A stretch of DNA of 24,578 nt. Source: Rhodothermales bacterium (GTDB taxonomy: Bacteria > Bacteroidota > Rhodothermia > Rhodothermales > VXPQ01). Location: NCBI GenBank assembly GCA_040904565.1, contig JBBDTI010000016.1:49205-73782 (forward strand), given 5' to 3'. Under the pieces are notes generated by a model. It did not search any database. It saw only the letters and a list, made by a program, of their open reading frames with translations, and was not told the DNA's origin. Positions 1-22,126 of the stretch are shown here, one piece after another (positions within the stretch are counted from its first letter, which is position 1; each line of letters starts with the position of its first letter). Made by a program: the position numbers and the translations under genes.

Positions 1-155
1 CGTTCGACGATAAGGCCGGCGCCGCATCCACGCTCTTCGACATCCCGCGGGACAAACGGCTCAATCACCAGATGGAGGTCGTCTCCGGACTCGAATCCGA
101 GCAGGCGGCCGGCCTCATGCAGGCGTTCTTTCGGGAACGAAGGGTCGGACTATAA
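1..155 (+). CDS. tadA: tRNA-specific adenosine deaminase, 3' end (partial; gene starts before the window)
   Basis: Frame 3 reads FDDKAGAASTLFDIPRDKRLNHQMEVVSGLESEQAAGLMQAFFRERRVGL* (TAA 153-155). This matches the TadA C-terminal pattern DxKaGa...lNH...v..G.....c..lm..FFr..R. Not in the supplied ORF track. Confidence 0.85.
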   Translation, partial: FDDKAGAASTLFDIPRDKRLNHQMEVVSGLESEQAAGLMQAFFRERRVGL

Positions 156-258
156 ATTGGGCACGAAGGGTCGGACTCTGGATCGGGAATGCCGGATTGG
201 ACTCTGGATCGAGAACGCCGGATTGGACTCTGGATCGAGAACGCCGGATTGGACTCTG
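137..258. repeat. 26-bp-period tandem repeat between tadA and ypdA
   Basis: GGACT recurs at 147, 173, 199, 225 and 251, exactly 26 bp apart. Unit GGACTCTGGATCGAGAACGCCGGATT is present in about 3.3 copies (173-258). ACGAAGGGTCGGACT is duplicated at 137-151 and 163-177. Confidence 0.95.
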
Positions 259-283
259 AACTACATACACGTGTTGATTTGAT

Positions 284-1288
284 ATGATAGATGTTGCCAT
301 TGTAGGTGCGGGTCCGGTTGGACTCGCATGCGCCCTGCGTGCCAAGCGTGAGGGACTCGAGGCCGTCGTGATCGATAAGGGGGCCGTCGTGAATTCACTG
401 GTCGGCTATCCGAACCAGATGGAGTTCTTCTCGACGCCGGAGCTCATTGAGATAGGAGGACACCCCTTCCCCACGACGGGCTACAAGCCCGTCCGCGAGG
501 AGGCGATCGAGTACTACCGGCGCGTGGCCGAGATAGAGTCACTCCGCCTACGCCTCTACGAGCGCGTCCGACGCATCGACGGAGATAAGGGAGGCTTTCG
601 CGTGGTGACCGACAAGGACACCATCGAGGCTCGCCACGTCGTCGTTTCGATCGGATTTTTCGACCATCCGAATAAGCTCGACGTACCCGGTGAGGACCTC
701 GATAAGGTCACGCACTATTACAAGGAGCCGTATCCGTATGCCGGTCAAAAAGTGGCCGTCGTCGGGGCCCGCAACTCGGCCGCCAAGGCCGCCCTCGATT
801 GCTACCGGCACGGCGCCGACGTCACGATGATCGTCCGCGCTCCCCTTCTCTCCGACAAGATCAAGTACTGGATCAAACCGGATCTAGAAAACCGGATCAA
901 GGAGGGCAGCATCACCGCGCACTTCAGTACGATTCTCGAGGAGATTAAGGATTCGTCGATCATCGTGAGAACGCCTGACGGGCGACGGGAGCTGGATAAC
1001 GACTGGGTGCTGGCCATGACGGGCTATCACCCGGACTACCGGTTCCTCGACGGCCTCGGTATTGAGATCGCCGACGATGAATTTCGTACTCCCGTCTACG
1101 ACGAGCAAACGTTCGAGACGAGCCGCCGCGGCCTGTATCTCGCCGGTACCGTGTGCGGAGGCTATAAAACCAATCGGTGGTTTATCGAGAACGGCCGCGT
1201 GCACGCCCGCCAGATCATGAGCCACATCATTAGCGGCGAGGTCGAACCAGTGAATTTCGAAGAGCAGCACTGGAAGACGGAGGAATAG
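284..1288 (+). CDS. ypdA: YpdA-family FAD-dependent putative bacillithiol disulfide reductase (Bdr)
   Basis: N-terminal GAGPVG FAD-binding motif. Family motifs NSLVGYPNQMEFFST, HYYKEPYPY, NSA..AAL, IKYWIKPDLENRI, AMTGYHPD and WFIENGRVH. No CxxC active site, unlike TrxB. Confidence 0.88.
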   Translation: MIDVAIVGAGPVGLACALRAKREGLEAVVIDKGAVVNSLVGYPNQMEFFSTPELIEIGGHPFPTTGYKPVREEAIEYYRRVAEIESLRLRLYERVRRIDGDKGGFRVVTDKDTIEARHVVVSIGFFDHPNKLDVPGEDLDKVTHYYKEPYPYAGQKVAVVGARNSAAKAALDCYRHGADVTMIVRAPLLSDKIKYWIKPDLENRIKEGSITAHFSTILEEIKDSSIIVRTPDGRRELDNDWVLAMTGYHPDYRFLDGLGIEIADDEFRTPVYDEQTFETSRRGLYLAGTVCGGYKTNRWFIENGRVHARQIMSHIISGEVEPVNFEEQHWKTEE

Positions 1289-1372
1289 GGTACGGGCACA
1301 TCGCGTCTCCGTGCGGGACGGCTCGTTGGCCCACTGTCGTAGACTCGCCCGGGAGCGTGCATCCGCCGGCCC

Positions 1373-3580
1373 CTACAGCGCATCCAGAATCTGCCGTGCC
1401 GGCTGGTTACCCGGAGCCCGTTCCAGCGCCCGTTCGGCGTACCGCCGCGCCGTTGCGTACTCCTCCAGGCGGAAATATGCGAGCGCGAGGTTCACCAGCC
1501 CGTCGACGTAGGTGGCGTCGAGTTCCACGGCCTGTGTCAACGCCTCCACGGCCCCCGATAGATCACCCGTATTGAGATAAAAAGCCCCCAGATTCCCCAG
1601 CGTGACGGGATGGTCCGGCTCCGCCTCCGCGGCGCGCTCAAAATAGACCCGTGCCTCCTGCTCGCGACCCTGTCCGGCCAGCAGGAGTCCCAGGTTGCTG
1701 AGCGCCTCACCGTAGTCGGGATCGAGACGGATCGCCTCGCGCAGCGCCAGCTCGCCCGCTTCTATATCGCCATCTCGGAGATAGGCCGTGCCCAAATTGA
1801 AATGGGCGGTCTCGAGCCAGGGACGCTCGGCGATGGCCGCTCGGTACTGCTCCACGGCACGCCCGGGTTGCCGGCGCGATTCGAGATACCTCCCGTAGTT
1901 TACCCGGACGTTCGCGAGCAGCGGCTGGATGTCCAGCGCCCGATCGTAAAGCCGTTCGATCACGTCCGCCGAGCGTCCGTCGGACTCGTAGGCCTGGGCG
2001 AGCGCATTCAGGCGTTCGGGAATATCGGGTCCCTGCGCGACGGTCGCCTCCAGTGGCGGGAGCGCCCCATCTATCTCGCCGAGCTGAAGGTGTGCGATGC
2101 CGAGAAGAAACAGCGCCTCGCCGTACAGTGCGTTTTCGGTCGAATCACCCGCTGCACCCCCTGCAACACCTCCAGCCGCACCGTCACTCCCGTCGGCGAC
2201 TCCGCTTCCCTCGAGGTCACCGAGCAGCGCGATCCCGCGCCGAAGCGCCGTCGTATCGTTCTGCTGTCGCCCGTAGATGACGTACGCCATACCTGCGTAG
2301 ACGTCGTCTTCCACATCCCCTTCGAAATAGGGATTCAGGGAAATGGGCTTGCCCCCATCCTGCCCGGCTCCCTGCGCCGCCGCGTCCTCATCCACGACGC
2401 GGATGAAGTGATCCGTGAACGACGCGTGGGGTGTCCCCTCCGCCTCGACCTTGGGCATATGGCACGAGAAGCAGTCGACCGCCTCCGCATGAACGAAGCG
2501 TGCCTCCGCCGTAGGCAGGTCTTCCTGAAGCGACGGCGCGTCGTGGCACGTCGTACACGTCTCACTGAAATACTCCGGGCCGGCGGCCCGAAAACCTTCG
2601 TGTGGATCGTGGCACGTGGTACAGTCCATCGGTTCCTCCAGCGAACGGCTCTCCAGAAAGCAGGCGCTCTGCTTCATTCGGTCGGCGTGGGAGATGACGT
2701 CGATGGTAGACTCCGACCCGGGCTCGTCGGCTGCGAATAGGGCTACGTAGTCCGACAGCGCCTGGGACGGTCGAAAGTCGTAGGCGGTGCGGCCGGCACG
2801 TAGGACCGACACGGTGGTGTGCAGGTGGCACTGCCGGCACACGTCCAGCCGCCGATCCAGACTCAGGTGGGCTGGGTTGACGATGGTATGGTCGACGCTG
2901 TCGGCAGGAGCCGGCGCGGCCAGGCGCGCGTCGACGTGCACGGAGCCCGGTCCGTGGCAGCGTTCGCACCCGATCCCTTGCGGGACGTCGAGGAACTTTC
3001 CCTCCACGTGCGGGACCGGCTCCGGGTAGCTGTTGTGGCACGTCATGCATCGGTCGGGGATGATCCGGTCGAACCGTGCGTTGTAGGTTTCATAGCCCGG
3101 GCTGAACGCCCAGCGGTCCGACTGCGTGTACCACGTGACCGGCAGCTCGTGGTAATATCCGTTCTCCTCTACGAGATAGGTGCGCGCCGCCGTGCCGCTG
3201 CCCATCACGAACTGCATCTCGCGCACGAGGCTGTGCACCTTTCGTCCGTCCGCGTCGAGCCGATACTCCTCCTGAAAGAAACGATCCCCTTCCCGATACA
3301 TCCGGTAGGTCAGGTTTCGCTCTTCGTCACGGACGGTCGCATTGTCGAAATCCTCCACCACGTTGTCGGCCGTCAGCGGATACAGGGAATTAGCCATCCC
3401 ATGCTCCTGAAAGCCGCGATACTCGTCCTCGTGGCAGTCGAAGCACGCGGCATCTCCGAGATATTTGGCGGAGAGGTTCTCGAAGCGGGCGGATTCATCT
3501 ACCGCCGAAGTGCCGTGTTCCTCTCCGGCACACCCCGCACCAAATAGCGCAAGAATCAGGAGCGTCCCAGCAGCACGCAT
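1373..3580 (-). CDS. Multiheme (7 CxxCH) cytochrome c lipoprotein with C-terminal TPR array
   Basis: Start moved to ATG 3580, giving MRAAGTLLILALFGAG-C (lipobox). The longer ORF start at 3652 lies inside a DNA repeat. Heme motifs: CFDCH, CMTCH, CERCH, CRQCH, CTTCH, CTTCH, CFSCH. The last ~250 aa are TPR-like (AHFNLGTAYL, ALSNLGLLLA, TLGNLGAFYL, LVNLALAYF). Confidence 0.88.
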   Translation of the reverse strand: MRAAGTLLILALFGAGCAGEEHGTSAVDESARFENLSAKYLGDAACFDCHEDEYRGFQEHGMANSLYPLTADNVVEDFDNATVRDEERNLTYRMYREGDRFFQEEYRLDADGRKVHSLVREMQFVMGSGTAARTYLVEENGYYHELPVTWYTQSDRWAFSPGYETYNARFDRIIPDRCMTCHNSYPEPVPHVEGKFLDVPQGIGCERCHGPGSVHVDARLAAPAPADSVDHTIVNPAHLSLDRRLDVCRQCHLHTTVSVLRAGRTAYDFRPSQALSDYVALFAADEPGSESTIDVISHADRMKQSACFLESRSLEEPMDCTTCHDPHEGFRAAGPEYFSETCTTCHDAPSLQEDLPTAEARFVHAEAVDCFSCHMPKVEAEGTPHASFTDHFIRVVDEDAAAQGAGQDGGKPISLNPYFEGDVEDDVYAGMAYVIYGRQQNDTTALRRGIALLGDLEGSGVADGSDGAAGGVAGGAAGDSTENALYGEALFLLGIAHLQLGEIDGALPPLEATVAQGPDIPERLNALAQAYESDGRSADVIERLYDRALDIQPLLANVRVNYGRYLESRRQPGRAVEQYRAAIAERPWLETAHFNLGTAYLRDGDIEAGELALREAIRLDPDYGEALSNLGLLLAGQGREQEARVYFERAAEAEPDHPVTLGNLGAFYLNTGDLSGAVEALTQAVELDATYVDGLVNLALAYFRLEEYATARRYAERALERAPGNQPARQILDAL

Positions 3581-3603
3581 GGCAGCGGATGTGGCTGTTA
3601 ATA

Positions 3604-3716
3604 ACCGGAAAGGAAGACACGGGTCCGAGAAGATACCGGACGGGGAAGGCACGGATCCGAGAAGATACCGGACGGAGAAAACACGGGTCTGAGAAGATAC
3701 CGGGCGGAGAAAACAC
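3604..3716. repeat. 32-bp-period tandem repeat upstream of the cytochrome gene
   Basis: GAGAAGATACCGG occurs at 3627, 3659 and 3691 (32-bp spacing). Unit is approximately GAGAAGATACCGGACGGAGAAAACACGGGTCC, about 3.5 degenerate copies. Confidence 0.93.
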
Positions 3717-3734
3717 AGGACAGGCCAGATATCA

Positions 3735-3770
3735 GAAGGGGTAGGCTGCGCGCGAGCAACCTACCCCTCC
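3735..3770 (-). terminator. Stem-loop after the PorV-family gene (probable operon terminator)
   Basis: Minus strand reads GGAGGGGTAGGTTGC-tcgcgc-GCAGCCTACCCCTTC, about 27 nt after the stop. The plus-strand A/C mismatches become G-U pairs on the minus strand. The U-tail is poor. Confidence 0.65.
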
Positions 3771-3796
3771 ACAAACAAACGTGTTCGTATTCCGCC

Positions 3797-4834
3797 TTAC
3801 AGCGTAAACGAGCCGGCGATGATGTTGACGGCGTCAAACACGTCGGACGGGCGATAGGCATAGTCGACCGTGAGTCGGCTCGATCCGATCGGAAGGGTAA
3901 TGCCGCCCCCTACGTTCCACGCGGACCAGTGAATGAGATCCTGGTCGTCGGCCAGGTCCATGCCACCGCGAACGAACAGCATGTCCTGGAAGCCCAGCTG
4001 CAGTCCCGCCGCGTACTGGTTCACATCGTACGAATTGGACCGGAAGTTGGCCAGCACCGTCGCCGTCAGCTGGTCGCTGACGGATCGCTCGTACGTGGCA
4101 CCGAAATTAAGCATGGACGGCAGCTCCGAATTGATGTCCCGCACTTCGGCAGGAACGTCGAACTCGCCGGCCGGACCCGACGAAGAGATGGGGTCCTGCA
4201 GTCCGATGCCGTCATATCCAACCTGCGGACCGAAATTCCTCAGACTGACGCCGAAGCGGAGCCCGGATTCCCCGACCACGTACGTCATGCCCGCATCTAC
4301 GGCGAACGTCCTGGCATCCATGTTGTCGATGCTCTGCGTCATCCCTTTCAACGTAACGCCTGCCGCGATCCGATCGGTCAGCTGGCGACCGTACGTCAGG
4401 CCCGCGATGATCGTCCCCGCGGACCACGTCCGCGTCTCGACGATTTCGGGATCGTCCGTTGTCGTTTCCGGAATGTCTCCGTAGTCCCAGTTCGTTACGG
4501 TGAGGCTCACGTTATTCGATCCGAAGCGCTGCGCCACGCCGAAGTAGTTGACTCCGACGTCCGCGATGTAGTTCATCCGGCTAAACATGGCTCCCGTGCC
4601 CTGATTGAGCATCACGGCAGCCGGGTTGACGATAAGGGCTTCCACACCGGAAGCGCCGTTCATCCCTCCCGTCATGGCCGAACCGAGCGCCACCGACCGC
4701 GGCGTGACCGGAACGGTCAGCTCCGTCAAGGACGACGTGCCGAAACGCTCGTTACTCTGTGCATGGGCATCGAGCGTGGCGAATCCCAGGAGGACGGCCA
4801 GCATGACGCCGATGTATCGCTTGTGCTCTGTCAT
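3797..4834 (-). CDS. PorV/PorQ-family (FadL-like, UPF0164-type) outer-membrane beta-barrel
   Basis: Signal peptide ending AHA|Q. N-terminal L.VPVTPRSVALG...NPA motif and FAVDAG, GVSLRNFGP, LPS and VDYAY motifs typical of PorV-like proteins. Alternating beta-strand pattern, 345 aa. AGAGGT RBS upstream. Confidence 0.82.
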   Translation of the reverse strand: MTEHKRYIGVMLAVLLGFATLDAHAQSNERFGTSSLTELTVPVTPRSVALGSAMTGGMNGASGVEALIVNPAAVMLNQGTGAMFSRMNYIADVGVNYFGVAQRFGSNNVSLTVTNWDYGDIPETTTDDPEIVETRTWSAGTIIAGLTYGRQLTDRIAAGVTLKGMTQSIDNMDARTFAVDAGMTYVVGESGLRFGVSLRNFGPQVGYDGIGLQDPISSSGPAGEFDVPAEVRDINSELPSMLNFGATYERSVSDQLTATVLANFRSNSYDVNQYAAGLQLGFQDMLFVRGGMDLADDQDLIHWSAWNVGGGITLPIGSSRLTVDYAYRPSDVFDAVNIIAGSFTL

Positions 4835-4882
4835 TGTATCTAGACCTCTAATCTCGATTGGACTGCGTGCGTGTTCGGCCGT

Positions 4883-7800
4883 CTAGAATATGTTGATGGT
4901 GTTCTCACGGTTGATCACGCCGAATTTCAGCACCTTCTCGCCGACGCCCGGCACGTCGATATGTATGAAGTACATACCGCTCGCAACGGGAAGATTGCTA
5001 TCGGTGGTCAGGTTCCAGTCGAGCGAGACGCTCGGACCGTCCTTCTGCAGCGTTCGAACCAGCGTGCCGCTCACGGTGTAGACCCGAATCGTGGCCGTCT
5101 GGGGCAGATTCGTGAACCGCACGCGGCGATCCTGATTGCCCGTTTCGTACGCGGAGCGTCCGCGATACGGATTCGGGACGATGCCGATTTTGTCGAGCGC
5201 CTCCTGCAGCGCCTCGGCGTCGTTCTTCACGACCTCGCTCCCGCTGGTGTTCACGGAGAACACGTCGCCCGGCAGGTTCGGCTTCGAGGTCACGAAGCGA
5301 ACGTTCGTTCCGGCGGCAGGCGGATGTGCGTGGCCGCCAAAGGGTACGAACAGCACCCTTCCGAACGTATACCGGGCAGGGAAGCCGTTGTAAAACTTCG
5401 CGTGCTCGGCGGCGAGATCGGCCTCAGAGTAGGGAATGTCGGAAGCGTAGATCCGCTCGAACGTACCCGCGGCATTGCCCAGCGTATAGGGTGCCATACC
5501 GGTACTGATCCCCCAGAAGCCGTCTCCGTTGTCGTCCAGTATGGCGGCATGCACCTGCTGCTCGGTGCCCGAGACGGGATCGATCAGCCACACCTGGAAC
5601 GGCGCCCGGCCATCGCCCATCTCGTTTTCCGCGTAGGTCCCGTCGTCGGCGAGGTCGGGGCCCTCTTTCCATCCGAGCATCTGCACGCGGTCGTCGCCGG
5701 GTGAAGCGAAGTAATCCCACAGAATCTGCCCGTTGGTCTCCGCATCCTCCACGAATCGAATCTCGAACTCGGCCGGCGCGAGAGCCGCCACGTTGCCCAG
5801 CCAGTCGACCCTGCCCAGCACGTCACCCGGTGCTGAGATGCCTTGAGCGACGATGAAGAACCGGCGGTCGCCGAGTGAAGGCTCACCGCTCAGGGAGAAA
5901 TCGAGACTCGTAATGAACTCGCCATCGTCGGTTACCTGATTGATGTCGAGGAACTCCTTCGGCGGTCCGACGACCGTAAACGAGAGTCCGTCTGCCACGA
6001 TTACGTTCTCGCGCTGCGGCGGTACGTCGCCCGTCCGTTCGTAGAAGGCGCAGCCGTCCAGGATCGCGACGTCGTCGGACTGCCGCGTGATGCTATAGGC
6101 GATGAGTCCTTCGCCGCTCGCGATGCCGCATTCCGTACCCACGTCGAAGAATTCGACCTGGTACGTCGCGCCGGTAACCTGTGCCGGATCGACCACGCGA
6201 TACGAGATGATGCCTTCCCCGGCCTGATTGACGGCGGTGGCCGACGAGTCGGCGGTATACGCCTCCGACTGAATGCGCGTCCCGCCGTTACGTGCCGTCG
6301 CGTCGGCCGGGCGGATGGTAATATTCGTCGGCGAGCTTTCCAGAATCTTAGGCGTGGAGTTCGGACTGTGCGCGTAGGCGGCAATGCCGTAGTAGTAGTC
6401 CGTGTAATTGGTCAGATTAGACAGCTGGAAGGAGTGCTGAAGCCCGCTGTCCGTGCCGCGTGCCGACACCTGCTGGACGAAGTCGCCTACGTCCGGGTCG
6501 AATACCGGGTCGGTAACTTTCTTTACGCCGTTGATGATGTCGAAGGTGGCGACGTGCTCCCTCTGGCCGGAGGCAAAGCTCGCCGTTGGGTAGCGGTAGA
6601 CGTTAAAGCCTTCGAACGTATAGGTCGTGTCTTCCAGACCAAGACCGGACAAGAACGGGTCGGGCTGATCGAACTGACCGAGATAATTCTCGCTGTTGCT
6701 CGGATAGCCCCAGACCAGCGAAGCCTTACCGTCGATCTCGGACGCATACAGGCAGCGACCGCCTCCCGGTTGGAGCTCTTCGTTCGAGCTCGACGGCTGG
6801 CACAGCGGCGGAGCCGGCGGAGGCGACGGAATGTTGAAATCCGCGTCGTAAGCTGCCTGGGCGAGAATGTCGGCCGAGCGCAGCGCCGAGATGGAACTCA
6901 GGCGGTCGGCGCCCTGTGCGAACACGATGCCGTAGACGATGTCCTGGCTGTCGCCCTTATTAAGGGTGAACGGCCCCGTCGACATAACGAGGCGCCGGTC
7001 CCCCGGCTGGGCCGCACTGCCCGAGCCGTCGATGTTTTCCTCGCTCCAGAACTCACCCGTCACGGGATCTCCTGGAAAGGCAAACTTGGTCACCGGGCCG
7101 TCCGTCTGGAATCCGTTACCCGCTTCACGAAGCGGCTGGCCGCCGCGCCAGAAACCCCGCTGCACGTTGTAAATCTCCTGGGAAAGCTGCGGGTCTTCCG
7201 TACCGGCCGGACCGCCGTTGATGAAGTACATGAAGCTGGCCACACCTAGCGTGTCGCCGTCTTCCGAGACCGGTCCCTGGAAAAAGTCGTATCCCGTGGC
7301 CGGCGGCGTTCCGTAGACGCCGTCGACGTCACTGGCATTGTATACATATCCCAGGCTCAGCGTCGTGTCGACGCCGACGTAGTCGTCACCGGCATCCCCG
7401 AGGTCCGGGTCCGAAAAGATCGACAGGTAGGTGTCTTCGAGCGGCTCGTCCCCCTTATAGGTCACGCTGTACTTGTAGAACGTCGTATTGCCCAGCGCAT
7501 CGGCCCGGTTGAAGGCAAAGGCGTGCACGCGGACTTCGACGCCGATCGGCGGTGCCTGCGTGTTGTTGTGGGAATTTCCGACGTCGTTCATGATCCACCA
7601 GATGGCCTGGTCCCCGATCAGCTCGGGGCGGTCGCCGCCGGAGAGATTGTAATTCCCCTCGACGCCGTCGCCGTCGATGACGGGCGCGCCGAGGTCCACG
7701 GGCCAATCCGCCATGTCGGACGATGCCTGTCCGGTCGACTCATACGTCTGGATGTCGGACTTGCTGACCTTGAAGATCCGGTCGTAGGCCGAGCAGTTGC

Positions 7801-8233
7801 TTGGATTGACGGGCCGGCCGTCGCTTCCAAGAGGGCCGGGCCAAAACTCCCAGTCACTGTACGTTGCAGCGGCCGTACGGAGCTCGCCGCCTACCTGCCC
7901 GCCAATCCAGATGCCGCTGGCAAAGATCGGCGAGTGGCCGGACGCCTTTGGAACGATGTATTCCGCCGCACCACCGGCGTCCGAATACGCGATGCTGCCC
8001 ACGTTGAAGAGGCGGGCGCGCACGTTATTCACGTCCAGGTCGCGCTGCGCCGTCCCAACCCGGCAGCTTCCCGGGTCAGGTGCCGTGCTCGACATATAGA
8101 AAGTGGCGGACGACGCCTGGCGCTCTCGCCGGTCCTTGTCGTCGTCATCCGTATCGGCCAGGGCCACCGTGGACGTCGCCAGGCAGAGCGCGAGGATGAA
8201 CGTCAGATAGTGCGTTAAATTTCGCATGAGCAT
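4883..8233 (-). CDS. Large secreted protein of unknown function with T9SS type-A-like C-terminal sorting domain
   Basis: Sec signal peptide (start 8233 or 8227). Acidic, Gly/Pro-rich body with an Fn3-like segment (FEGFNVYR...YYYGIAAY). C-terminus VPNPY...VRFTNLPQTATIRVYTVSGTLVRTL...WNL...VASGMYFIHI...KVLKFGVI fits a T9SS CTD. Confidence 0.85.
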   Translation of the reverse strand: MLMRNLTHYLTFILALCLATSTVALADTDDDDKDRRERQASSATFYMSSTAPDPGSCRVGTAQRDLDVNNVRARLFNVGSIAYSDAGGAAEYIVPKASGHSPIFASGIWIGGQVGGELRTAAATYSDWEFWPGPLGSDGRPVNPSNCSAYDRIFKVSKSDIQTYESTGQASSDMADWPVDLGAPVIDGDGVEGNYNLSGGDRPELIGDQAIWWIMNDVGNSHNNTQAPPIGVEVRVHAFAFNRADALGNTTFYKYSVTYKGDEPLEDTYLSIFSDPDLGDAGDDYVGVDTTLSLGYVYNASDVDGVYGTPPATGYDFFQGPVSEDGDTLGVASFMYFINGGPAGTEDPQLSQEIYNVQRGFWRGGQPLREAGNGFQTDGPVTKFAFPGDPVTGEFWSEENIDGSGSAAQPGDRRLVMSTGPFTLNKGDSQDIVYGIVFAQGADRLSSISALRSADILAQAAYDADFNIPSPPPAPPLCQPSSSNEELQPGGGRCLYASEIDGKASLVWGYPSNSENYLGQFDQPDPFLSGLGLEDTTYTFEGFNVYRYPTASFASGQREHVATFDIINGVKKVTDPVFDPDVGDFVQQVSARGTDSGLQHSFQLSNLTNYTDYYYGIAAYAHSPNSTPKILESSPTNITIRPADATARNGGTRIQSEAYTADSSATAVNQAGEGIISYRVVDPAQVTGATYQVEFFDVGTECGIASGEGLIAYSITRQSDDVAILDGCAFYERTGDVPPQRENVIVADGLSFTVVGPPKEFLDINQVTDDGEFITSLDFSLSGEPSLGDRRFFIVAQGISAPGDVLGRVDWLGNVAALAPAEFEIRFVEDAETNGQILWDYFASPGDDRVQMLGWKEGPDLADDGTYAENEMGDGRAPFQVWLIDPVSGTEQQVHAAILDDNGDGFWGISTGMAPYTLGNAAGTFERIYASDIPYSEADLAAEHAKFYNGFPARYTFGRVLFVPFGGHAHPPAAGTNVRFVTSKPNLPGDVFSVNTSGSEVVKNDAEALQEALDKIGIVPNPYRGRSAYETGNQDRRVRFTNLPQTATIRVYTVSGTLVRTLQKDGPSVSLDWNLTTDSNLPVASGMYFIHIDVPGVGEKVLKFGVINRENTINIF

Positions 8234-8270
8234 GTATGAGGTGTTGATTTCTCAGGAATCCCTCTGGTAC

Positions 8271-8318
8271 GTTCCGCCGGCGGCCGCGCTCGCAAGAAGC
8301 GCGGCCGCCGAAAGGAAC
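8271..8318 (-). other. Strong intercistronic hairpin between the TBDR and CTD-protein genes
   Basis: Perfect 13-bp inverted repeat CGGCGGCCGCGCT (8278-8290) / AGCGCGGCCGCCG (8298-8310) with a 7-nt loop, extended by GTTCC/GGAAC. No U-tract follows on the transcribed (minus) strand. Confidence 0.8.
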
Positions 8319-8322
8319 CCAG

Positions 8323-11300
8323 CTAGAAGTTGAACAGAACGCCCAGCCGCACGCGTCGTGGCATACTGTACATGAGCGGCGCCGCCGACGTGTGGTTGAA
8401 CCCCACGTTCACGGGCCCCCCCGTATACGCCCTGTAGTTGAATTCCGCCGATTCCGGATCCGGTTGGCTCTGTATGAAGGAACGGCCGCCCGACGTCAAC
8501 AGGTAACCGTCCTCACCCGGGAGCCCGGTCGCCCGGTAGACGGCCAGCACGTTCTGCGTGTCGAAGAGGTTCAACACGCTGACGTAGGCCGTCAGTGCGG
8601 AGGCACCGAGGTTGAACCGCCGATCGAGACGCATGTCGATGCGCGACGTCGACGGCAGGCGAGCCGAGTTGATGGTACCCACCGCATCGGACGTGAAGCT
8701 GTCGTTGATGTTGAACGCCGAGCTCTTGAGCGCCGTGTAGGCCTGCCCGCTTCCGTACTGGGCCAGTACGTTGACGCCGACGTTCTCCAGGAGCGGTGCT
8801 CCGAGAATCATCGGACCCTCACCTTCCCCGAGGCGATAGTCGAACGAGGCGTTGACGGTGTGCCGCTGATCGAAGTCGGCCGGACTGATCGTGTTCGGAA
8901 ACACCTCGCCGCGCCAGACGATCACCGACGTGGCCTGTGCGTCCGAGCCCGTACCCTGCGCGAAGGCCAAGGTATAGTTGGCCGTGAGCGCCACGTTGCG
9001 CGTGCGCCGCAGGTCGAAGCCGACTTCGACGCCCTTGGTCGTCGTGAAGTCAGCGTTCAGATACGTCCCGTACTGCGGGAAGCCGCCCAACACCGGACGA
9101 TTGCTGATCTTATTTTCCTGCGTCCGATAGAAGCCTGAAATCGTCAGCGCCGCATTCGTCGCGAGGCGCTGGCGGAAGCCGAGCTCATACTGCGTCGTTT
9201 TCTCGGGCTGCAGCTTCGGATTGGGAACGCGCTGGTCCTGCGGCGCGATCTCCTCGTAGGCGCGGAACGGCGCGAATTCCTGCTCCGTCGGGCGCTGGCT
9301 CGTCACGTTATAGGACGCGAAGAAGATCGCCTGATCCGTAATCGGGAAGCTCACCCCAATACGCGGCATGAACGTCACGCTCGGCTCGTAATCCTCAAAC
9401 GCCTCGCTGATCGGATCGCCGGTAGCCTGCGCCTGGCCGGACAGATCGCTCGTGATCCGGGCGCCGTCTATGCGGGAGCCTTCCGTATCGTAGAAGTTTC
9501 CGGAAAGGTCGCGATAGCCGACCACCTCATCCGCATCGTTGAAGTACACCGCGTAATCGGAGTCGATCCCCGACGGACGGCTCGCGACGTCGCCGGCACG
9601 GACGATCGGCACGGCGGCGTAGACGTCCTTGAGCACCCTCGAGTTGTTGTCGAACACGTCGACGCGGACACCCAGGTTCAGGACCAGGTCACGGTATTCG
9701 ATCTTATCCTGAATATATCCGGCATAGTAGATCGGCTGGTACGGAGCGATGTCCATATTCGTCCGATCGTAATACGCCTCGATATCCTCGCTGTCCGCCT
9801 CGTTGAGACCGCGGAAGTCATACCCCCAGTACTCCGCGCGTTCGCGGAAGGCGTCGAAGGGCAGCTCCTCGTAGTTGTCGAAGCAGGCGGACTGCTCGCA
9901 GTCGCCGTCGGCAAAATAACGCGAGAGACCGAAGCCGGTATTTAGATAGTACCAGCGCTCGGTCGAGGCCTGGTACATGCCCCCGAATTCGATCTGATGG
10001 AGACCGATCTGAGAGGTGGCGTTACCGGAGAGCTGAAAGCTCTGCAGGTCCCGCTTCTGGTAACGCGTCAGCGGCGCCCCGGGCAGCGTAAAGCCGAGCC
10101 CGATGGCGCGTCCGACCGTCGCCAGACCGTCGTTCTGGTAAAGCGGCTCGTACGTCCCTCCTCCACGCGAGGCGAAGTAGCGGCTCGCTACGTCGAGGTA
10201 CTCGTGATCGATGTCTCCGTAGAACAGGCCGTCCTCTACGTCGCTCGAAAAGCCGTTCGGCCGCTGCGTGTAATAGTAGTCCTGAAAGCCGGCGTCGATC
10301 TGATAGAAGAAGTTCTGCGAGAAGCGCTGCCGGAGACTGCCGTAGAGCCGCCACTGTTCGCGCTCGTCGATGTAGAACACGTCGTCATTGTACGCCAGCT
10401 CATCGTAGGCCAGCTCATCCTCCTGCTGCGATTCGTACCCACCACCGAGGCGGAGCGTGACGGTCTCGGTCGGATCGATGCTGATGTTGCCATTCAGCAC
10501 GAATTCGTTCAGCGGACGGCTCTTCGCGGAACGACGACTGAAGTCATCGGCCGTGTAGGTATCGGGCGCGTTGATGATACCATCACTGAGGCTGTAGCCT
10601 TCCGGGAGGCTCAGAATGGTTCCGAGGGAATCCGTCGTCAGCGGCTCCTCATTATCGAAGGCAGCCTGCGCGGCCTGCCAGGGGAAGGGAATAAACATCT
10701 GGTCTCCCGATCCGTTGGTCGCGCGAACGACCTGCGGATTGGCTTCAAGCGACGCAAGCTGGTCGCCGGAAAGCTGATAGGTGTCGATCCCATACGGATT
10801 CGCGTCGGACATGGAGGTATACTGTCCGGATACGAAGAAGCCGACCCGATCGGAGAACAGCGGACCGCCCAGCGAGAGCGAACCGATATTGTGGCCGTAG
10901 CCGTCGAGACCTTCCGAGGTGATTCCCTCGAGCGTCCCGAAAAACTGTTCGGCGCCGGATTTGGTCGTGATGGAAATGACGCCGGCCTGAGCGTCCCCGT
11001 ATTTGGCGGGGATCGTACCGATCAACATTTCCTGCTCCGCGATCGCCTGCTGGTTGATGCCCAGCGTAGCGGTAGACCCACGCAGGCGCACACCGTCCAC
11101 GTAGTAGACGACCTCTTGTTCGCGACCGCCGCGAATGAAGAGCGCATCCGATCCCTCGCGAGCCACCACGCCGCCCTGCAACGCCGCGACATCCGTTACG
11201 CCGCGCAGGGGGAGATTCTGTAGATCTTCGCCGGAAACGACGCGCGGGACGCCCACGGCGTCGCGCTGAATGATGGGTCGCTCGTAGGCAACCACGATCT

Positions 11301-11631
11301 CATCCAGCTCGGCGCCGGGCATAAGCTCGAAATTCAGCTCGCGTGTGTATCCGGCATTAATCTCCACATCCTGAATGGTCTGCGGCTGATATCCGACGAA
11401 GGACGCCGTGATATCGTACGTGCCGACCGGGACACCGATGATGAAGTAATTACCATCTACGTCCGTAGCGGTACCCAGCTGCGTACCCTGAAGGATGACG
11501 TTAGCACCAGGAAGCGGTTCACCCGTGCTGCCGTCCGTGACGACGCCGGCGAGCCGACCTGTGTTTTGTGCTAACGCCAGCATGGGCGTAGCGAGCAGAA
11601 AGAGTACGATTGTACCCCACTTGCGCAACAT
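8323..11631 (-). CDS. TonB-dependent receptor with N-terminal carboxypeptidase-regulatory-like domain
   Basis: Signal ALA|Q. N-domain G.LAGVVTD..TGEPLPGANV...TATDVDGNY. TonB-box-like LDEIVV. Plug motifs IRGGR...YYVDGV and AKYGDAQAGVISITTKSG. Barrel motifs PRIGVSF, NPKLQPEKTTQYELG, ANYTL and NLFD. Ends PRRVRLGVLFNF. Confidence 0.93.
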   Translation of the reverse strand: MLRKWGTIVLFLLATPMLALAQNTGRLAGVVTDGSTGEPLPGANVILQGTQLGTATDVDGNYFIIGVPVGTYDITASFVGYQPQTIQDVEINAGYTRELNFELMPGAELDEIVVAYERPIIQRDAVGVPRVVSGEDLQNLPLRGVTDVAALQGGVVAREGSDALFIRGGREQEVVYYVDGVRLRGSTATLGINQQAIAEQEMLIGTIPAKYGDAQAGVISITTKSGAEQFFGTLEGITSEGLDGYGHNIGSLSLGGPLFSDRVGFFVSGQYTSMSDANPYGIDTYQLSGDQLASLEANPQVVRATNGSGDQMFIPFPWQAAQAAFDNEEPLTTDSLGTILSLPEGYSLSDGIINAPDTYTADDFSRRSAKSRPLNEFVLNGNISIDPTETVTLRLGGGYESQQEDELAYDELAYNDDVFYIDEREQWRLYGSLRQRFSQNFFYQIDAGFQDYYYTQRPNGFSSDVEDGLFYGDIDHEYLDVASRYFASRGGGTYEPLYQNDGLATVGRAIGLGFTLPGAPLTRYQKRDLQSFQLSGNATSQIGLHQIEFGGMYQASTERWYYLNTGFGLSRYFADGDCEQSACFDNYEELPFDAFRERAEYWGYDFRGLNEADSEDIEAYYDRTNMDIAPYQPIYYAGYIQDKIEYRDLVLNLGVRVDVFDNNSRVLKDVYAAVPIVRAGDVASRPSGIDSDYAVYFNDADEVVGYRDLSGNFYDTEGSRIDGARITSDLSGQAQATGDPISEAFEDYEPSVTFMPRIGVSFPITDQAIFFASYNVTSQRPTEQEFAPFRAYEEIAPQDQRVPNPKLQPEKTTQYELGFRQRLATNAALTISGFYRTQENKISNRPVLGGFPQYGTYLNADFTTTKGVEVGFDLRRTRNVALTANYTLAFAQGTGSDAQATSVIVWRGEVFPNTISPADFDQRHTVNASFDYRLGEGEGPMILGAPLLENVGVNVLAQYGSGQAYTALKSSAFNINDSFTSDAVGTINSARLPSTSRIDMRLDRRFNLGASALTAYVSVLNLFDTQNVLAVYRATGLPGEDGYLLTSGGRSFIQSQPDPESAEFNYRAYTGGPVNVGFNHTSAAPLMYSMPRRVRLGVLFNF

Positions 11632-11636
11632 ATGCT

Positions 11637-11643
11637 ACCTCCT
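11637..11643 (-). promoter_or_regulatory. Shine-Dalgarno site of the TBDR gene
   Basis: AGGAGGT on the minus strand, 5 nt before the ATG at 11631. Confidence 0.85.
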
Positions 11644-11944
11644 CTATTGATGGTGTATGCCTGTAAATACCGGTACAAGGAGCCGCGCACCGGGCTTTAC
11701 GTACAGTCGAGTATGTGTTCGCGCCATGAAATGGAGATCGGTGTCGGGCCGTCCACGTATCGAACGGGCTCTCCAAGCACCAGAGCCTGCGCCTCTACGT
11801 CGGGAGCCAACCGGTAGAAGCATGGAACCTTTGACGAACGAAAAGAAACGCTGTATCAGTCGGTTCGCTAAGCAATCTCCAATTTACTGAGTGACGGTGA
11901 GAATGCACCTGTGAAAATATATACGTGTCTCAACTCATCCGAAG

Positions 11945-11973
11945 AATATATTGGGGGGCACCCCGATTGTCAA
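11945..11973 (-). promoter_or_regulatory. Near-consensus sigma70 promoter for the TBDR operon
   Basis: Minus strand: TTGACA (11973-11968), a 17-nt spacer, then TATATT (11950-11945), within an AT-richer intergenic region. Confidence 0.8.
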
Positions 11974-12197
11974 GGCAATAGCGCCCTCATGGCTGGAAGC
12001 GGTACCAATGCCGATTCTGATCCATATAGGCTAATTTTGTGGCTTATTCACGCTTTCAAGAAAAGCGCTTCTAATGTTTCGCGGAAAATTGACCGAGCGA
12101 ATGTGCGCTATTGACGGCTGTACCGTCATATGTCGGCCCGAACGGTCGGTCGATTTCGCGGCCGTACGTAACACAGGTAATGTGGCACCGCACGTCC

Positions 12198-13781
12198 CTA
12201 CAGCTGTACCCGTCGAACCTGCTCGACGCCGTCCAGTCCGGCAATCTCTTTCGCCACCTCGTCGGACACCTCCTCGTCGACGCTCACGGCGGTGAGCGCC
12301 ACGGACCCTTTCTCGGCCCGGCCCAGCGCCAGCGCACCGATATTGATGTCGTTCCGAGCCAGGATGCTGCCCACCGACGCCAGCATGCCGGGCCGGTCGA
12401 CGTTTCTGTAGAACAGGAGCCGCCCTTCCGGACGCAGCTCGAGCCAGTAGTCGTCCATGCGCACGAGCCGAAGCTCGTCGCGATCGAAGATCGTGCCGGC
12501 TACGACGCGACGCTCATCACCCACAGCGAGATCGATCTCGATCAGATTCGTATAACCGCCTGAGGCGGCCTCCCGCTCCTCGGTGACGTTGACGCCCATC
12601 TCCTCGGCGAGGAGGGGCGCATTGATCAGGTTGACCGGCTCGCTGATCCAGTGAGAAAGCACGCCGCGCACCGCCGCGATCGAGATGACCTCCGAGAAGC
12701 GCCGTGCGACGTCGCCCCGGCAGCGTACGGTAATCGATCGAACGCTGCCGTCACCGATCTGGGCCACGATCTGTCCGAGTCGATCGGCGAGCTGGAGGTA
12801 CGGCTGTGCCTCAGGCTGGGCGGCCATCTTGATGGCCATCGCGTTGACGGGCGTCTGCACGGGCTCTCCGTTCAAGGCGTTGATCACCTGTTCGGTAATT
12901 TGCGTCGCCACTTTTTCCTGAGCCTCGTCGGTAGATGCGGCAATATGGGGTGTGGCCACGACGTTCGGATGGCGAATCAGCTTTTCGAGCGACGCCGGCG
13001 GCGGCTCCTGAGAGTAAACGTCCAGCGCCGCACCACCTACCTGTCCACTTTCGAGCGCCTCGAGCAGGTCGGCCTCATCGACGATGCCGCCCCGCGCGCA
13101 GTTCACGATGCGAACACCTGTCTTGCACGTGGCAAGCGTCTCCGCGCGAAGCATGCCGCGCGTCGCGTCGTTCAACGGAGTGTGGACCGTTATGAAATCG
13201 CTCGCTGCAAACAGCTCGTCCAGCTCTACCAGGCGGACGCCGAAACGCTCGGCGGTCTCGCTGGAAACGACGGGATCGTAGCCTATGACCTTCATGCCGA
13301 ATCCGGCCATTCGCTCGGCGACTTCCCTGCCGATCTTGCCGACGCCGACCACGCCCAGCGTCTTTTTGTAGACCTCCGAACCCGTAAACACTTTCCTGTC
13401 CCATCGCCCATCGACGAGCGACCGGTTTGCCTGCGGAATGCGGCGAGCGAGCGACAGCAGCATGGCGCAGGAATGCTCGGCCGTCGAGATCGTATTTCCG
13501 TCCGGAGCATTGATGACGAGCACGCCGCGTCGCGTCGCGGCATCCAGATCGATGTTGTCCACGCCTACACCCGCGCGGCCGACAACCTTCAGGTTGTCCG
13601 CCGCATCGAGCAGCTCCGACGTGATCGTCGTACCGCTTCGAATGATCCATCCATCGGCACCAGCCGCCAGCTTCAGCAGCTCGTCAGGCGATTTCTTCAG
13701 CTGTACGTCAGCCTCGATTCCGTTGTCTTCAAGCATGTCGATGCAGACCTGGTCGACTGCATCGGTGATAAGCACTTTCAT
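12198..13781 (-). CDS. serA: D-3-phosphoglycerate dehydrogenase (long form with C-terminal ACT domain)
   Basis: Motifs GRAGVGVDNID, NAPDGNTISTAEH, GVGKIG, NCARGG, ALDVY..EP and TPHIAAST.EAQ, with ACT motif DRPGML. 527 aa. Confidence 0.96.
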   Translation of the reverse strand: MKVLITDAVDQVCIDMLEDNGIEADVQLKKSPDELLKLAAGADGWIIRSGTTITSELLDAADNLKVVGRAGVGVDNIDLDAATRRGVLVINAPDGNTISTAEHSCAMLLSLARRIPQANRSLVDGRWDRKVFTGSEVYKKTLGVVGVGKIGREVAERMAGFGMKVIGYDPVVSSETAERFGVRLVELDELFAASDFITVHTPLNDATRGMLRAETLATCKTGVRIVNCARGGIVDEADLLEALESGQVGGAALDVYSQEPPPASLEKLIRHPNVVATPHIAASTDEAQEKVATQITEQVINALNGEPVQTPVNAMAIKMAAQPEAQPYLQLADRLGQIVAQIGDGSVRSITVRCRGDVARRFSEVISIAAVRGVLSHWISEPVNLINAPLLAEEMGVNVTEEREAASGGYTNLIEIDLAVGDERRVVAGTIFDRDELRLVRMDDYWLELRPEGRLLFYRNVDRPGMLASVGSILARNDINIGALALGRAEKGSVALTAVSVDEEVSDEVAKEIAGLDGVEQVRRVQL

Positions 13782-15574: not shown

Positions 15575-15823
15575 CCTCAAAACCGCATGCTCGGCTCACG
15601 CCGCCGACAGGCTCAACCCGTATATTACGAAACCCGCCTGCGCCGTAAGTAAAGGTTCGGCAAATATCAGCGCGGAATCTAGCGGGTGCCGGTTCGGACT
15701 AGGCCGCTCACGATTCCCGTCGCGCTTATTCCGTATCCTTTGTCTGGATAATGTCTTTGTGTCGCTAATCTCTTTCGACCGTCCGCCGTGTCGCTCACCT
15801 TCGTGCCGGCACCCATCATATCG

Positions 15824-17449
15824 ATGCCGTCGCATTCATTCAAGGCCGCCGTGTCCCTCGCCGCGCGATCGTGCGCGACCCCGAACGTCCCACTTCGGCG
15901 CACCCTTCGGCCGCGACAGGTCGCCCTGTTGGCCGCGCTCGTGGCCGTCTGCAGTGCCGGTCAGCCCGCGCCCGCGCAACCCGTCGATCAACCGTTCACG
16001 TTCAGCAGCGCGACGCACTCGCTTCCGGCAGTGACCCACGCCGATCTGGCGATGGGCGACGTCGACGGGGACGGAGACCTCGACGTATTTGTCTCCGGCA
16101 TTTTGGACGGCTCGCCCTTTTCTCGACTCTACCGGAACGACGGGATGACGTACGGCGATACCGAACCGTCCGATGTGGCGTACCGCGAGGTCACCGGCCC
16201 CTTCCCCGACCTCGCCTTCGGTGCATCCGCCTGGGGTGATTTCGACGGCGACGGAGACCTGGACCTCGTCGTGACAGGAAGCCGAACGCTCGTGTGGCCG
16301 TATGCACCCCTCACGATGCTGTTTCGCAACGACGGCGGAACGTTCAGGGCAGTCGACGCCGATCTCGTGGACGTATATGCAGGCGCGGCCGCCTGGGGCG
16401 ACGTCGACGGCGACGGGGATGCAGACCTCCTCCTGGGAGGCGAGGACGGCGGCGGCGAAAGCATCGCTGTCCTGTACCGCAACGACGACGGTGCCTTTGC
16501 CGCCATACAGGAGCTGACCGGACTGGCCTACGGCGATGCGGCCTGGGGGGACATGGACGGGGACGGAGACCTGGACCTCTTGCTGGCCGGAAGCGGACCG
16601 ACGGGCTTCCACGCGGATGCGTACGAAAATGTGAACGGAACGCTGATACCCCTTGCGACCGACCTGCCCGGCGTCGCTTTCGCGTCAGTGGACTGGGGGG
16701 ACGTGGACGGAGACGGGGACCTCGATGTGGTCCTGAGCGGGGGACGAACCGCGACGAGAGTGCTGGAGGCCGTCGTCGGCCTTTTCCGCAATGACGCCGG
16801 ATCGTTCACACAGATGGACGTCGAACTTCCCAACGTCCTGTCAGGAGACGTTTCCTTCGCGGACTACGACGAGGACGGAGACCTCGACCTGTTCGTGATG
16901 GGAGCCGAGGGCGCCCTGGGCCGCCGCCTGGCGCGCATCTACGAGCAGGAAGTGAACGGTTGGATAGAGCGCGCGCGCCTCATCGGCGTCGTATTCGGAA
17001 CGGCTGCATGGGGCGACGTAGAGGGCGACGGCGACGTCGACCTGATCGCAGCGGGCCGCCCCACGGCGAATACGCCGCTCCTGCATGTTTATCTCAACGC
17101 CCGTCAGACCGGTACCGAACCGGAGCCGCCCACGGCACCTCACGGTGCACCAAATACGGACGAGCCGCACCCGTTCGTGGCCGCCCCCAACCCTTCTTCC
17201 GGCAGCGTAACGTTTCACTTCACGATGCCGCGGGAAGGGACCGTCCGGCTGACGCTGATCGACGTCCTGGGCCGCCGGGTCGCGACCGTACGTGACGCCT
17301 ACCTCGCGGCCGGCGGTCACCAGATTACGTGGAACGCCGTACATGCCGCTGGACGACCCCTCGGGTCGGGCCTCTATTTCGCCGTGCTGGAAACCCGCGG
17401 AACCCGCCAAAGCACCCGCCAAAGCCTGCCGCTCCTACTCTCTCGATGA
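15824..17449 (+). CDS. FG-GAP/VCBS-type repeat beta-propeller protein with T9SS type-A C-terminal sorting domain
   Basis: Seven (G/A)DxDGDGDLD-type repeats, mostly followed by LY/FRND. Signal ending APA|Q. C-terminus APNPSSG...VRLTLIDVLGRRVATV...G.HQITW...SGLYFAVL. Start uncertain (ATG 15824 chosen; GTG 15788 possible). Confidence 0.85.
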   Translation: MPSHSFKAAVSLAARSCATPNVPLRRTLRPRQVALLAALVAVCSAGQPAPAQPVDQPFTFSSATHSLPAVTHADLAMGDVDGDGDLDVFVSGILDGSPFSRLYRNDGMTYGDTEPSDVAYREVTGPFPDLAFGASAWGDFDGDGDLDLVVTGSRTLVWPYAPLTMLFRNDGGTFRAVDADLVDVYAGAAAWGDVDGDGDADLLLGGEDGGGESIAVLYRNDDGAFAAIQELTGLAYGDAAWGDMDGDGDLDLLLAGSGPTGFHADAYENVNGTLIPLATDLPGVAFASVDWGDVDGDGDLDVVLSGGRTATRVLEAVVGLFRNDAGSFTQMDVELPNVLSGDVSFADYDEDGDLDLFVMGAEGALGRRLARIYEQEVNGWIERARLIGVVFGTAAWGDVEGDGDVDLIAAGRPTANTPLLHVYLNARQTGTEPEPPTAPHGAPNTDEPHPFVAAPNPSSGSVTFHFTMPREGTVRLTLIDVLGRRVATVRDAYLAAGGHQITWNAVHAAGRPLGSGLYFAVLETRGTRQSTRQSLPLLLSR

Positions 17450-22123: not shown

Positions 22124-22126
22124 CAC

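Follow-up and report, generated by a model that had tools for sequence, protein, structure and literature searches.

A recurrent trio of genes for a TonB-dependent receptor, a C-terminal-domain protein and a PorV-like barrel: a candidate SusD-independent outer-membrane uptake module in Rhodothermales

This study concerns a three-gene unit of a Rhodothermales bacterium, carried on a 24,578-nucleotide stretch of DNA (hereafter the window) that corresponds to positions 49205-73782 of contig C16 in a 4.02-Mb assembly of 95 contigs, ~95% complete. Read on the minus strand, the unit encodes a TonB-dependent receptor of 1102 aa (8323-11631 of the window), a secreted protein of 1116 aa (4883-8233; hereafter the middle protein) and an outer-membrane barrel of the PorV/PorQ family of 345 aa (3797-4834). 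This trio is a conserved unit that has been expanded by duplication. On balance, we consider it more likely than not an outer-membrane uptake module in which the barrel would receive and probably hold the C-terminal domain (CTD) of its neighbor, displaying a capture protein for the receptor.

An original prediction, made from the nucleotide sequence of the window, had described three closely spaced, co-oriented genes with no SusD-like lipoprotein, enzyme or regulator among them, and both parts of that description were borne out. The open reading frame (ORF) listing of the window places all three genes on the same strand, with 89 nt between the receptor and middle genes and 48 nt between the middle and barrel genes, and Pfam and NCBIfam scans of the three proteins detected no SusD, recognizable enzyme family or regulator. 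The middle gene probably starts at its third codon, an ATG at 8227, in keeping with a length of 1114 aa for the identical protein in the databases and with an Atlas record that begins at residue 3. Close homologs carry the labels Rhodothermales or Rubricoccaceae, cultured carriers of the module include Rubrivirga and Rubricoccus isolates, and the window is wholly or partly present in five sediment-metagenome DNA runs from two studies. Genomes, contigs and loci are referred to below by G, C and L numbers where they need to be told apart.

Results

Recurrence and divergence of the trio

Two further trios with the same gene order and strand were found in the same genome by phmmer, on contigs C21 and C11, bringing the total to three. 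The three receptors are mutual best paralogs (191 and 183 bits, versus at most 87 bits for other receptors), as are the three barrels (55 and 52 bits, versus ~25 bits for others).

A profile of the middle protein gathered 77 loci from Rhodothermales, for which the testable subset differs per neighbor. The receptor gene lies directly upstream of the middle gene in 52 of 58 testable loci and a PorV-like gene directly downstream in 66 of 69, and both neighbors occur together in 48 of 54. L070, L080 and L101, which have a barrel and no clear receptor, depart from this pattern, as do L088, L090 and L093, where tandem middle genes are accompanied by neither. A serA-like neighbor and an oxidoreductase gene are also syntenic within Rhodothermales, and the case for linkage was therefore rested on the paralogs and on distant loci. 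Since the genes flanking the trio differ among these paralogs and distant loci, general synteny fails to explain why the three genes stay together.

The distant loci come from other families of the phylum, and 19 of 20 have the order receptor, middle gene, barrel (the exception is L111). Their taxon labels derive from two protein names only, those of two barrels named by source as belonging to an Ignavibacteriales bacterium and a Bacteroidia bacterium. Matches to the middle-protein profile occur in 208 of 401 sampled genomes of the phylum (E <= 1e-10). The CTD profile alone matches in 211 of the 401 (E <= 1e-12), often in at least 10 copies among the best 12 matches scored per genome. When loci were sampled by the CTD subtype alone, 16 of 20 turned out to be full trios and 4 stood alone. 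The complete 3.0-Mb genome G400, from the same family, has 14 PorV-family matches, seven of which are in trios. One further match is paired with a middle gene without a receptor, and another with a receptor without a middle gene; the remainder comprise two tandem barrels that follow a CTD protein, one lone barrel, one PorV2-like gene and the porV of a porU-porV pair.

The three components diverge in parallel. Across 10 paralogous trios, pairwise identities are correlated between receptor and barrel (r = 0.83, 3 of 5000 permutations), receptor and CTD (r = 0.75, 0 of 5000) and barrel and CTD (r = 0.63, 2 of 5000). This pattern fits duplication and divergence of the trio as a block. The original prediction had proposed a co-phylogeny of the three genes and a gene-neighborhood survey, the latter of which came out in favor of a conserved unit. 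Its statement that the arrangement recurs in related lineages of the Fibrobacterota-Chlorobiota-Bacteroidota (FCB) group holds in part: the trio extends to Ignavibacteriales- and Bacteroidia-labelled genomes, and for other FCB phyla the leads consist only of look-alike Atlas clusters from Zixibacteria, Eisenbacteria and Fidelibacterota and of one source name, "Marinimicrobia".

Middle-family genes also occur in tandem arrays, with three copies in L093 and a middle-barrel-middle-barrel arrangement in L080; L090 and L111 are listed as arrays too. In L105 and L108, extra middle-family copies follow a complete trio.

A dedicated barrel paralog

The barrel belongs to the PorV/PorQ family, matching NF033709 over residues 35-332 with 110.1 bits (cut-off 90). 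The sole sequence match of the barrel-family profile in the PDB is PorV of Flavobacterium johnsoniae (6h3i_F, E 1.3e-17). At E <= 0.1, the NCBIfam scan of the barrel listed four PorV/PorQ-type families and no PorP/SprF model, which we take to be part of that library.

Within the PorV/PorQ family, the barrel stays below the cut-offs of the known equivalogs. Housekeeping PorV was rejected as its identity, with 29.3 bits against a cut-off of 250 (NF033710) and a different gene adjoining porU in related genomes. PorQ was rejected as well (NF033711, 80.6 versus 220 bits), the PorQ equivalog of this genome being a gene on C72 with 277.2 bits, and the score for PorV2 is likewise low (27.7 versus 325 bits). 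The genome has seven PorV-family matches, among them the PorQ equivalog and a PorV2-like gene, so the trio barrel is not its only member of the family, in line with the original prediction. None of the seven genes reaches the PorV equivalog cut-off. PorU is encoded at bases 43-3489, at the start of contig C82, reading toward the contig end. Because it sits at the edge of the contig, the housekeeping porV has probably been lost at the contig break.

A housekeeping porV linked to porU, which the original prediction had asked for as a gene separate from the trio barrel, was found in all five complete relatives. There the best PorV-family match (312-349 bits) lies directly downstream of PorU, in genomes that carry 10-20 PorV-family matches each. 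Orthologs of the window's barrel were traced in three of these relatives (G400, G128 and G328; 109.5-116 bits) and are located away from porU. As the relatives have a separate porU-linked porV, the trio barrel is a dedicated paralog.

A private CTD subtype and its predicted binding to the barrel

The tail of the middle protein (residues 1011-1116; 4886-5203, minus strand) forms a C-terminal beta-sandwich in the AlphaFold 2 (AF2) model. It is a borderline case of a type IX secretion system (T9SS) type-A CTD: the ~100-aa tail scores 19.2 bits with hmmscan and 23.5 bits in the genome search against TIGR04183, which has a cut-off of 23. Among NCBIfam models, the tail matches the C-terminus of PorZ best (31.8 bits).

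This domain is what the middle proteins of different trios have in common. The protein from the window resembles those of C21 and C11 only over the last ~100 aa (36% identity; E 1e-13 and 7e-11), and the latter two are 34% identical over their full length. In an hhalign comparison of the two middle-family profiles, the aligned region comprised 97 CTD columns only (probability 98.5%, E 3.6e-15), with no similarity outside the CTD. A hidden Markov model (HMM) of the CTD subtype gave three strong matches in the genome, all of them trio proteins (153.6, 131.0 and 121.3 bits). The next match was the CTD of PorU with 23.1 bits, and all other proteins of the genome scored at or below that value. Since the HMM marks exactly the three trio proteins, the CTD represents a private subtype.

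Judged by sequence similarity, the nearest relatives of the trio CTD are the tails of PorU and PorZ; PorZ itself was not found over the cut-off in this genome. According to an excerpt of PMC10202324, PorU and PorZ are the pair of T9SS proteins that retain their CTDs and remain attached to PorV and PorQ; as the same excerpt proposes, a CTD may be shielded from cleavage by its cognate PorV-like barrel.

The CTDs of 24 trios end in two ways. Those of the type found in the window carry 8-10 extra residues past the last strand and have F, Y, W or L as the final residue, and those of the C21/C11 type stop right after the last strand, ending in ..IR or ..IK.

An interface between the CTD and the neighboring barrel, a further expectation of the original prediction, is predicted with high confidence. 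The complex was modeled from barrel residues 26-345 (32-row alignment) and CTD residues 1005-1116 (51-row alignment). The interface score (ipSAE) reached 0.91, 0.92 and 0.91 in three runs, and the best of three controls reached 0.03. The partner has a predicted local distance difference test (pLDDT) score of 86, and at least 97% of the contacts are common to the runs. Among solved complexes, 58 of 80 attain the pass mark of the tool; among mismatched pairs, 2 of 110 do. In the model the CTD is placed on the barrel loops, with 43 of its 112 residues in the interface, which takes in 13 of the 17 invariant CTD residues (hypergeometric P = 6.7e-4).

The receptor is not a SusC protein

Classification as a TonB-dependent receptor was based on PF00593 and PF07715 (22-strand-type barrel and plug) scoring above the Pfam gathering thresholds. 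The product of the upstream gene is such a receptor, with 98.8 bits for TonB_dep_Rec_b-barrel (cut-off 27), 30.8 bits for Plug (cut-off 23.9) and 74.7 bits for CarboxypepD_reg. It is composed of a signal peptide, the CarboxypepD_reg domain (residues 27-114), the plug (128-217) and a large barrel (~480-1022), and a DEIVVAY stretch ahead of the plug resembles a TonB box.

Identity with SusC/RagA was rejected, as the receptor scores 87.1 bits on the SusC model TIGR04056 against a cut-off of 368, and only the N-terminal ~200 residues match. Two true SusC genes in the same genome, each followed by SusD, reach 726 and 599 bits, and the model therefore works in this lineage. Likewise, the match to a SusC homolog in the PDB is restricted to residues 13-228 of the receptor. 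PF07980 (SusD) has only two matches in the genome, on C1 and C58, which adjoin the two true SusC genes. A SusC/SusD system was thus also rejected, as the middle protein matches no SusD family and the SusD proteins of the genome adjoin other receptors.

The middle protein is predicted to carry a beta-supersandwich head

The middle protein begins with a signal peptide and has no Pfam family over the cut-off; database entries for its homologs bear the name "T9SS type A sorting domain-containing protein" or are called hypothetical. Its AF2 model (pLDDT 85.8; predicted template modeling score 0.71) is arranged as a beta-supersandwich head, a series of FN3/Ig-like beta domains and the CTD sandwich. 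Foldseek with the whole model was uninformative except for the head, as FN3 arrays dominate the output; PorZ (5m11) appeared with E 3.4e-7 and a very low TM-score.

The head (residues ~57-468; 6830-8065, minus strand), which has a galactose-mutarotase-like fold in the model, matches the non-catalytic N-terminal domains of GH15 glucoamylase/glucodextranase, dextran dextrinase, GH94 phosphorylases and GH116 enzymes (PDB entries 9ju0, 1ug9, 1lf6, 5nz8 and 5ost), with Z scores of 18-19 over ~250 residues, a root mean square deviation of ~3 A and ~10% identity. Other matches are to GH174 fucanases at Z 13.6-13.7 and aldose epimerases at Z 12-14, as well as to lyase domains. The model of a C21-type middle protein (pLDDT 83.8) has the same supersandwich head, with top matches at Z 18.9 in a search independent of Foldseek. 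Thus, in the models, both middle families share one architecture of supersandwich head, FN3-like domains and CTD. Neither of the two models, which are largely beta, contains the (alpha/alpha)6 catalytic domain. A GH15/GH94/GH116-type enzyme was rejected, as only the supersandwich aligns (57-468, or to 556), the remainder is beta-rich and no enzyme family matches.

In the family alignment, the head is rich in invariant acidic and aromatic residues, e.g., an SDPDLGD..DD stretch and a D412-R413-R414 motif. These residues would fit a ligand or Ca2+ site, and catalysis is also compatible with them. A lipobox-like motif is present in 4 of 51 middle-family members only, and the protein from the window has a signal-peptidase-I type ALA|D site, which makes lipid anchoring of the middle protein unlikely.

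Export machinery

The genome encodes parts of a T9SS, including PorU (986 bits), the PorQ equivalog (277 bits) and 26 CTD matches; SprA, for which the original prediction had suggested a search, is present with 1951 bits. GldM (TIGR03517, PF12081) was not detected in this genome, nor was GldK, which gave 34.8 bits only. PF12081 was also not detected in five complete relatives (G400, G128, G036, G328 and G097), and PF19841 (GldN) had no detectable match in this genome, nor in G400, G128, G328 and G097. Of five other trio-bearing genomes from the phylum, four give GldN matches of 211-244 bits. A phmmer search of all ORFs of the genome with the ORFs of G083 and G107 up to and including the GldN match (presumed gldKLMN) gave a weak generic match only. 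The motor and ring proteins may either be too divergent for the models, or export may work without them.

Flanking signals and neighboring genes

The signals assumed to delimit the unit stood up in part. The "strong promoter" of the original prediction corresponds to one sigma-70-like match, TTGACA-17-TATATT, with 11 of 12 consensus positions (11945-11973, minus strand), ~315 nt upstream of the receptor gene. It is the sole such site in 3500-12300, and since shuffled sequences average 2.5 sites, it is to be read as a consensus match only; scoring was against the sigma-70 consensus, and the promoter type of the host lineage may differ. The terminator-like hairpin that had been proposed downstream does form a stable fold, being a GC-rich stem of 15 bp at ~3735-3770 (minus strand), directly 3' of the barrel stop codon. 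The 66-nt stretch around it has a folding energy of -34.5 kcal/mol (z = -5.7), and none of 200 shuffles was equally stable. Its U tract is weak rather than clean, and the hairpin was absent from the output of a simple terminator scan. A 32-bp tandem repeat of 3.2 copies (88% match) is located at 3613-3716, in the intergenic region that separates the hairpin from the next gene.

The gene immediately downstream of the barrel gene encodes a 759-aa protein (1373-3652, minus strand) with seven CxxCH motifs in a multihaem-like N-terminal half and C-terminal TPR repeats. Of the Rhodothermales loci, 54 of 77 have this gene after the barrel, and none of the 20 distant loci does. The C21 and C11 trios, too, are followed by TPR genes, which are not found after the other G400 trios or the distant ones. 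The 759-aa protein was rejected as a fourth core part on account of its absence from the distant loci and from the other trios of G400.

Elsewhere in the window, a second CarboxypepD_reg TonB-dependent receptor of 780 aa (19784-22126, minus strand) is followed by a DUF4249-like gene (18917-19783, minus strand), the two forming a receptor-partner pair distinct from the trio. At 15788-18906 lie two FG-GAP repeat genes, and FG-GAP/ASPIC genes flank the C21 and C11 trios too. Outside the window, on the same contig (G000:C16:92747-96402; L011 8748-12403), a 565-aa CTD protein with weak F510_1955-type glycosylhydrolase and Ycf48-like matches is followed by two tandem PorV/PorQ-family genes, with no receptor. 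The same arrangement is found in G400 (L132), and by its gene order it looks like another cognate CTD-barrel pairing.

Discussion

Proposed mechanism

The findings above suggest how the module may work. The middle protein would be exported by Sec and, by means of its CTD, would pass the SprA translocon of the T9SS. The adjacent PorV-like barrel, for which the complex model supports binding of the CTD, would be its cognate receptor and would most likely retain it uncleaved, as PorQ does with PorZ and PorV with PorU. The supersandwich head would be displayed at the cell surface on its FN3/Ig-like stalk, where it may capture, and possibly process, a substrate, most plausibly a glycan. The substrate would then be handed to the upstream-encoded TonB-dependent receptor for import, through a coupling that may be physical or functional. 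The middle protein would do the job that SusD and the surface glycan-binding lipoproteins do for SusC, anchored by a barrel and not by a lipid.

A further-reaching version, which we put forward tentatively, is a stable three-part machine of transporter, surface capture protein and PorV-like permanent anchor. In Rhodothermia, Ignavibacteria and allied lineages, such a machine might be the main SusD-independent counterpart of polysaccharide utilization loci. Its CTD, once an export signal removed by cleavage, would have become a permanent dock, and the system would run with the SprA translocon where PorK/L/M/N are undetectable.

Alternative explanations

An unlikely alternative is that the barrel is only a dedicated shuttle, which takes the CTD at SprA to PorU for cleavage, so that the protein is released or linked to lipopolysaccharide and the receptor imports whatever the freed protein yields or binds, without a stable complex. 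A shuttle is the role described for PorV (PMC10202324, excerpt), PorU is present in the genome, the complex model is equally compatible with transient binding, and some middle-family genes have no private barrel. However, a private barrel that has been co-duplicated three to at least seven times per genome is hard to justify when the housekeeping PorV serves other CTDs. In both the genome and NCBIfam, the tails nearest to the trio CTD belong to PorU and PorZ, whose CTDs are retained, and the clustering of invariant CTD residues inside the predicted interface also speaks against a mere shuttle. It is improbable, too, that the middle protein is an enzyme and not a binding protein, namely a glycanase or a lyase with a supersandwich fold, which would make the trio a minimal "degrade and import" unit with the barrel still anchoring or exporting the protein. 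The many invariant Asp, Glu and aromatic residues of the head, with its SDPDLGD..DD and D412-R413-R414 motifs, would suit an enzyme, as would the matches to GH174 endo-1,3-fucanases, aldose epimerases and lyase domains. Yet every one of the best matches is to a non-catalytic N-terminal domain, both models lack the (alpha/alpha)6 catalytic domain of GH15/GH94/GH116, neither Pfam nor NCBIfam gives an enzyme family, and a Ca2+ or ligand site would account for the invariant acidic cluster equally well.

More improbable still, the trio could build or anchor a surface structure such as an adhesin or cell coat, as SprF does for SprB, with the receptor-like protein acting in assembly or signaling, or else the FadL-related barrel could be a second channel for a hydrophobic substrate. 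The former has a precedent in the PorP/SprF partners encoded beside adhesins with type-B CTDs (PMC10202324, excerpt), and the body of the middle protein is FN3/Ig-rich and adhesin-like; the relationship of the PorV family to FadL (PMC12578637, excerpt) would be consistent with the latter. The receptor, however, has all the parts of an importer, namely the N-terminal extension domain, the TonB-box-like stretch, plug and barrel, and is by far the most constant neighbor. The confident placement of the CTD on the barrel loops corresponds to the binding mode of PorV and not to a transport mode.

Several observations weigh against an uptake module with a barrel-held capture protein. Block-duplicated genes co-diverge without interacting, so the correlated identities (a Mantel result) indicate co-inheritance only. 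A minority of middle genes have no barrel or receptor, for example those in L093 (three in tandem), L088, L090, L111, L137, L146, L148 and L149, so the middle protein need not be accompanied by a private barrel. Since PorV-CTD/substrate complexes have already been solved (8gl6 and related entries, listed in the PDB together with 6h3i), the complex score may reflect likeness to known PorV-CTD binding; the model shows PorV-like binding of a CTD, and neither specificity for this barrel over the housekeeping PorV nor retention of the CTD. The supersandwich fold leaves the ligand uncertain, as some enzymes appear to be built largely on it. Finally, because GldK, GldM and GldN were undetected, the T9SS export route is less certain, which leaves the barrel-CTD pairing unaffected.

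Significance

If the proposed uptake module is correct, part of the Bacteroidota (in the GTDB sense) builds machines of transporter and surface partner without lipoproteins, through a T9SS-type tail and a private barrel. The spread of the CTD subtype makes it a large unannotated share of the outer-membrane proteome, and probably of the substrate range, of these bacteria in sediments and soils. Proteins of the trio families are currently named "hypothetical protein", "T9SS type A sorting domain-containing protein" or "PorV/PorQ family protein"; the CTD subtype, the barrel subfamily and the non-SusC receptor clade could serve as annotation markers. Furthermore, the trio is a natural, many-fold replicated test case for the proposal that a barrel protects a CTD (PMC10202324, excerpt).

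Comparison with known systems

No description of a cluster of receptor, CTD protein and PorV-like genes was found in the openly licensed full texts of PMC and bioRxiv, a scope that leaves out supplements and subscription journals. The closest functional counterpart is SusC/SusD (RagA/RagB), where a CarboxypepD_reg transporter is likewise encoded directly upstream of a large surface partner, in many paralogs per genome and with a presumed role in capture and import. In the trio, however, the receptor fails the SusC model, the partner is all-beta and CTD-bearing whereas SusD is a helical lipoprotein, and there is an obligatory third gene, the PorV-like barrel.

The anchoring part resembles the PorP/SprF partners, such as SprF for SprB, in that a cargo-specific PorV-like barrel is encoded beside its cargo. 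They differ in that the trio CTD is type-A-like, at borderline scores, whereas CTDs of the SprB kind are type B, and in that the trio barrel matched the PorV/PorQ family. To our knowledge, no link to a TonB-dependent receptor has been described for SprF-type pairs. BamG-BamH of the Bacteroidota beta-barrel assembly machinery (BAM) also has a FadL/PorV-related barrel, which binds an extracellular protein through its loops inside a machine around another barrel (PMC12578637, excerpt); the likeness to the trio is one of principle only, as both the machine and the families differ.

Most similar to the barrel-CTD pair are PorQ-PorZ and PorV-PorU, in which a barrel of this family binds the uncleaved CTD of one partner and anchors it (PMC10202324, excerpt); for the trio, such retention is assumed by analogy. 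The trio CTD is closest to the tails of PorZ and PorU, but the trio barrel is neither of the two equivalogs, the anchored protein is a supersandwich/FN3 protein and not a T9SS component, and the pair is coupled to a TonB-dependent receptor and multiplied within the genome. The trio is thus a new and very widespread combination of known kinds, which, in the reading favored here, works like SusC/SusD joined to an anchor of the PorQ-PorZ type.

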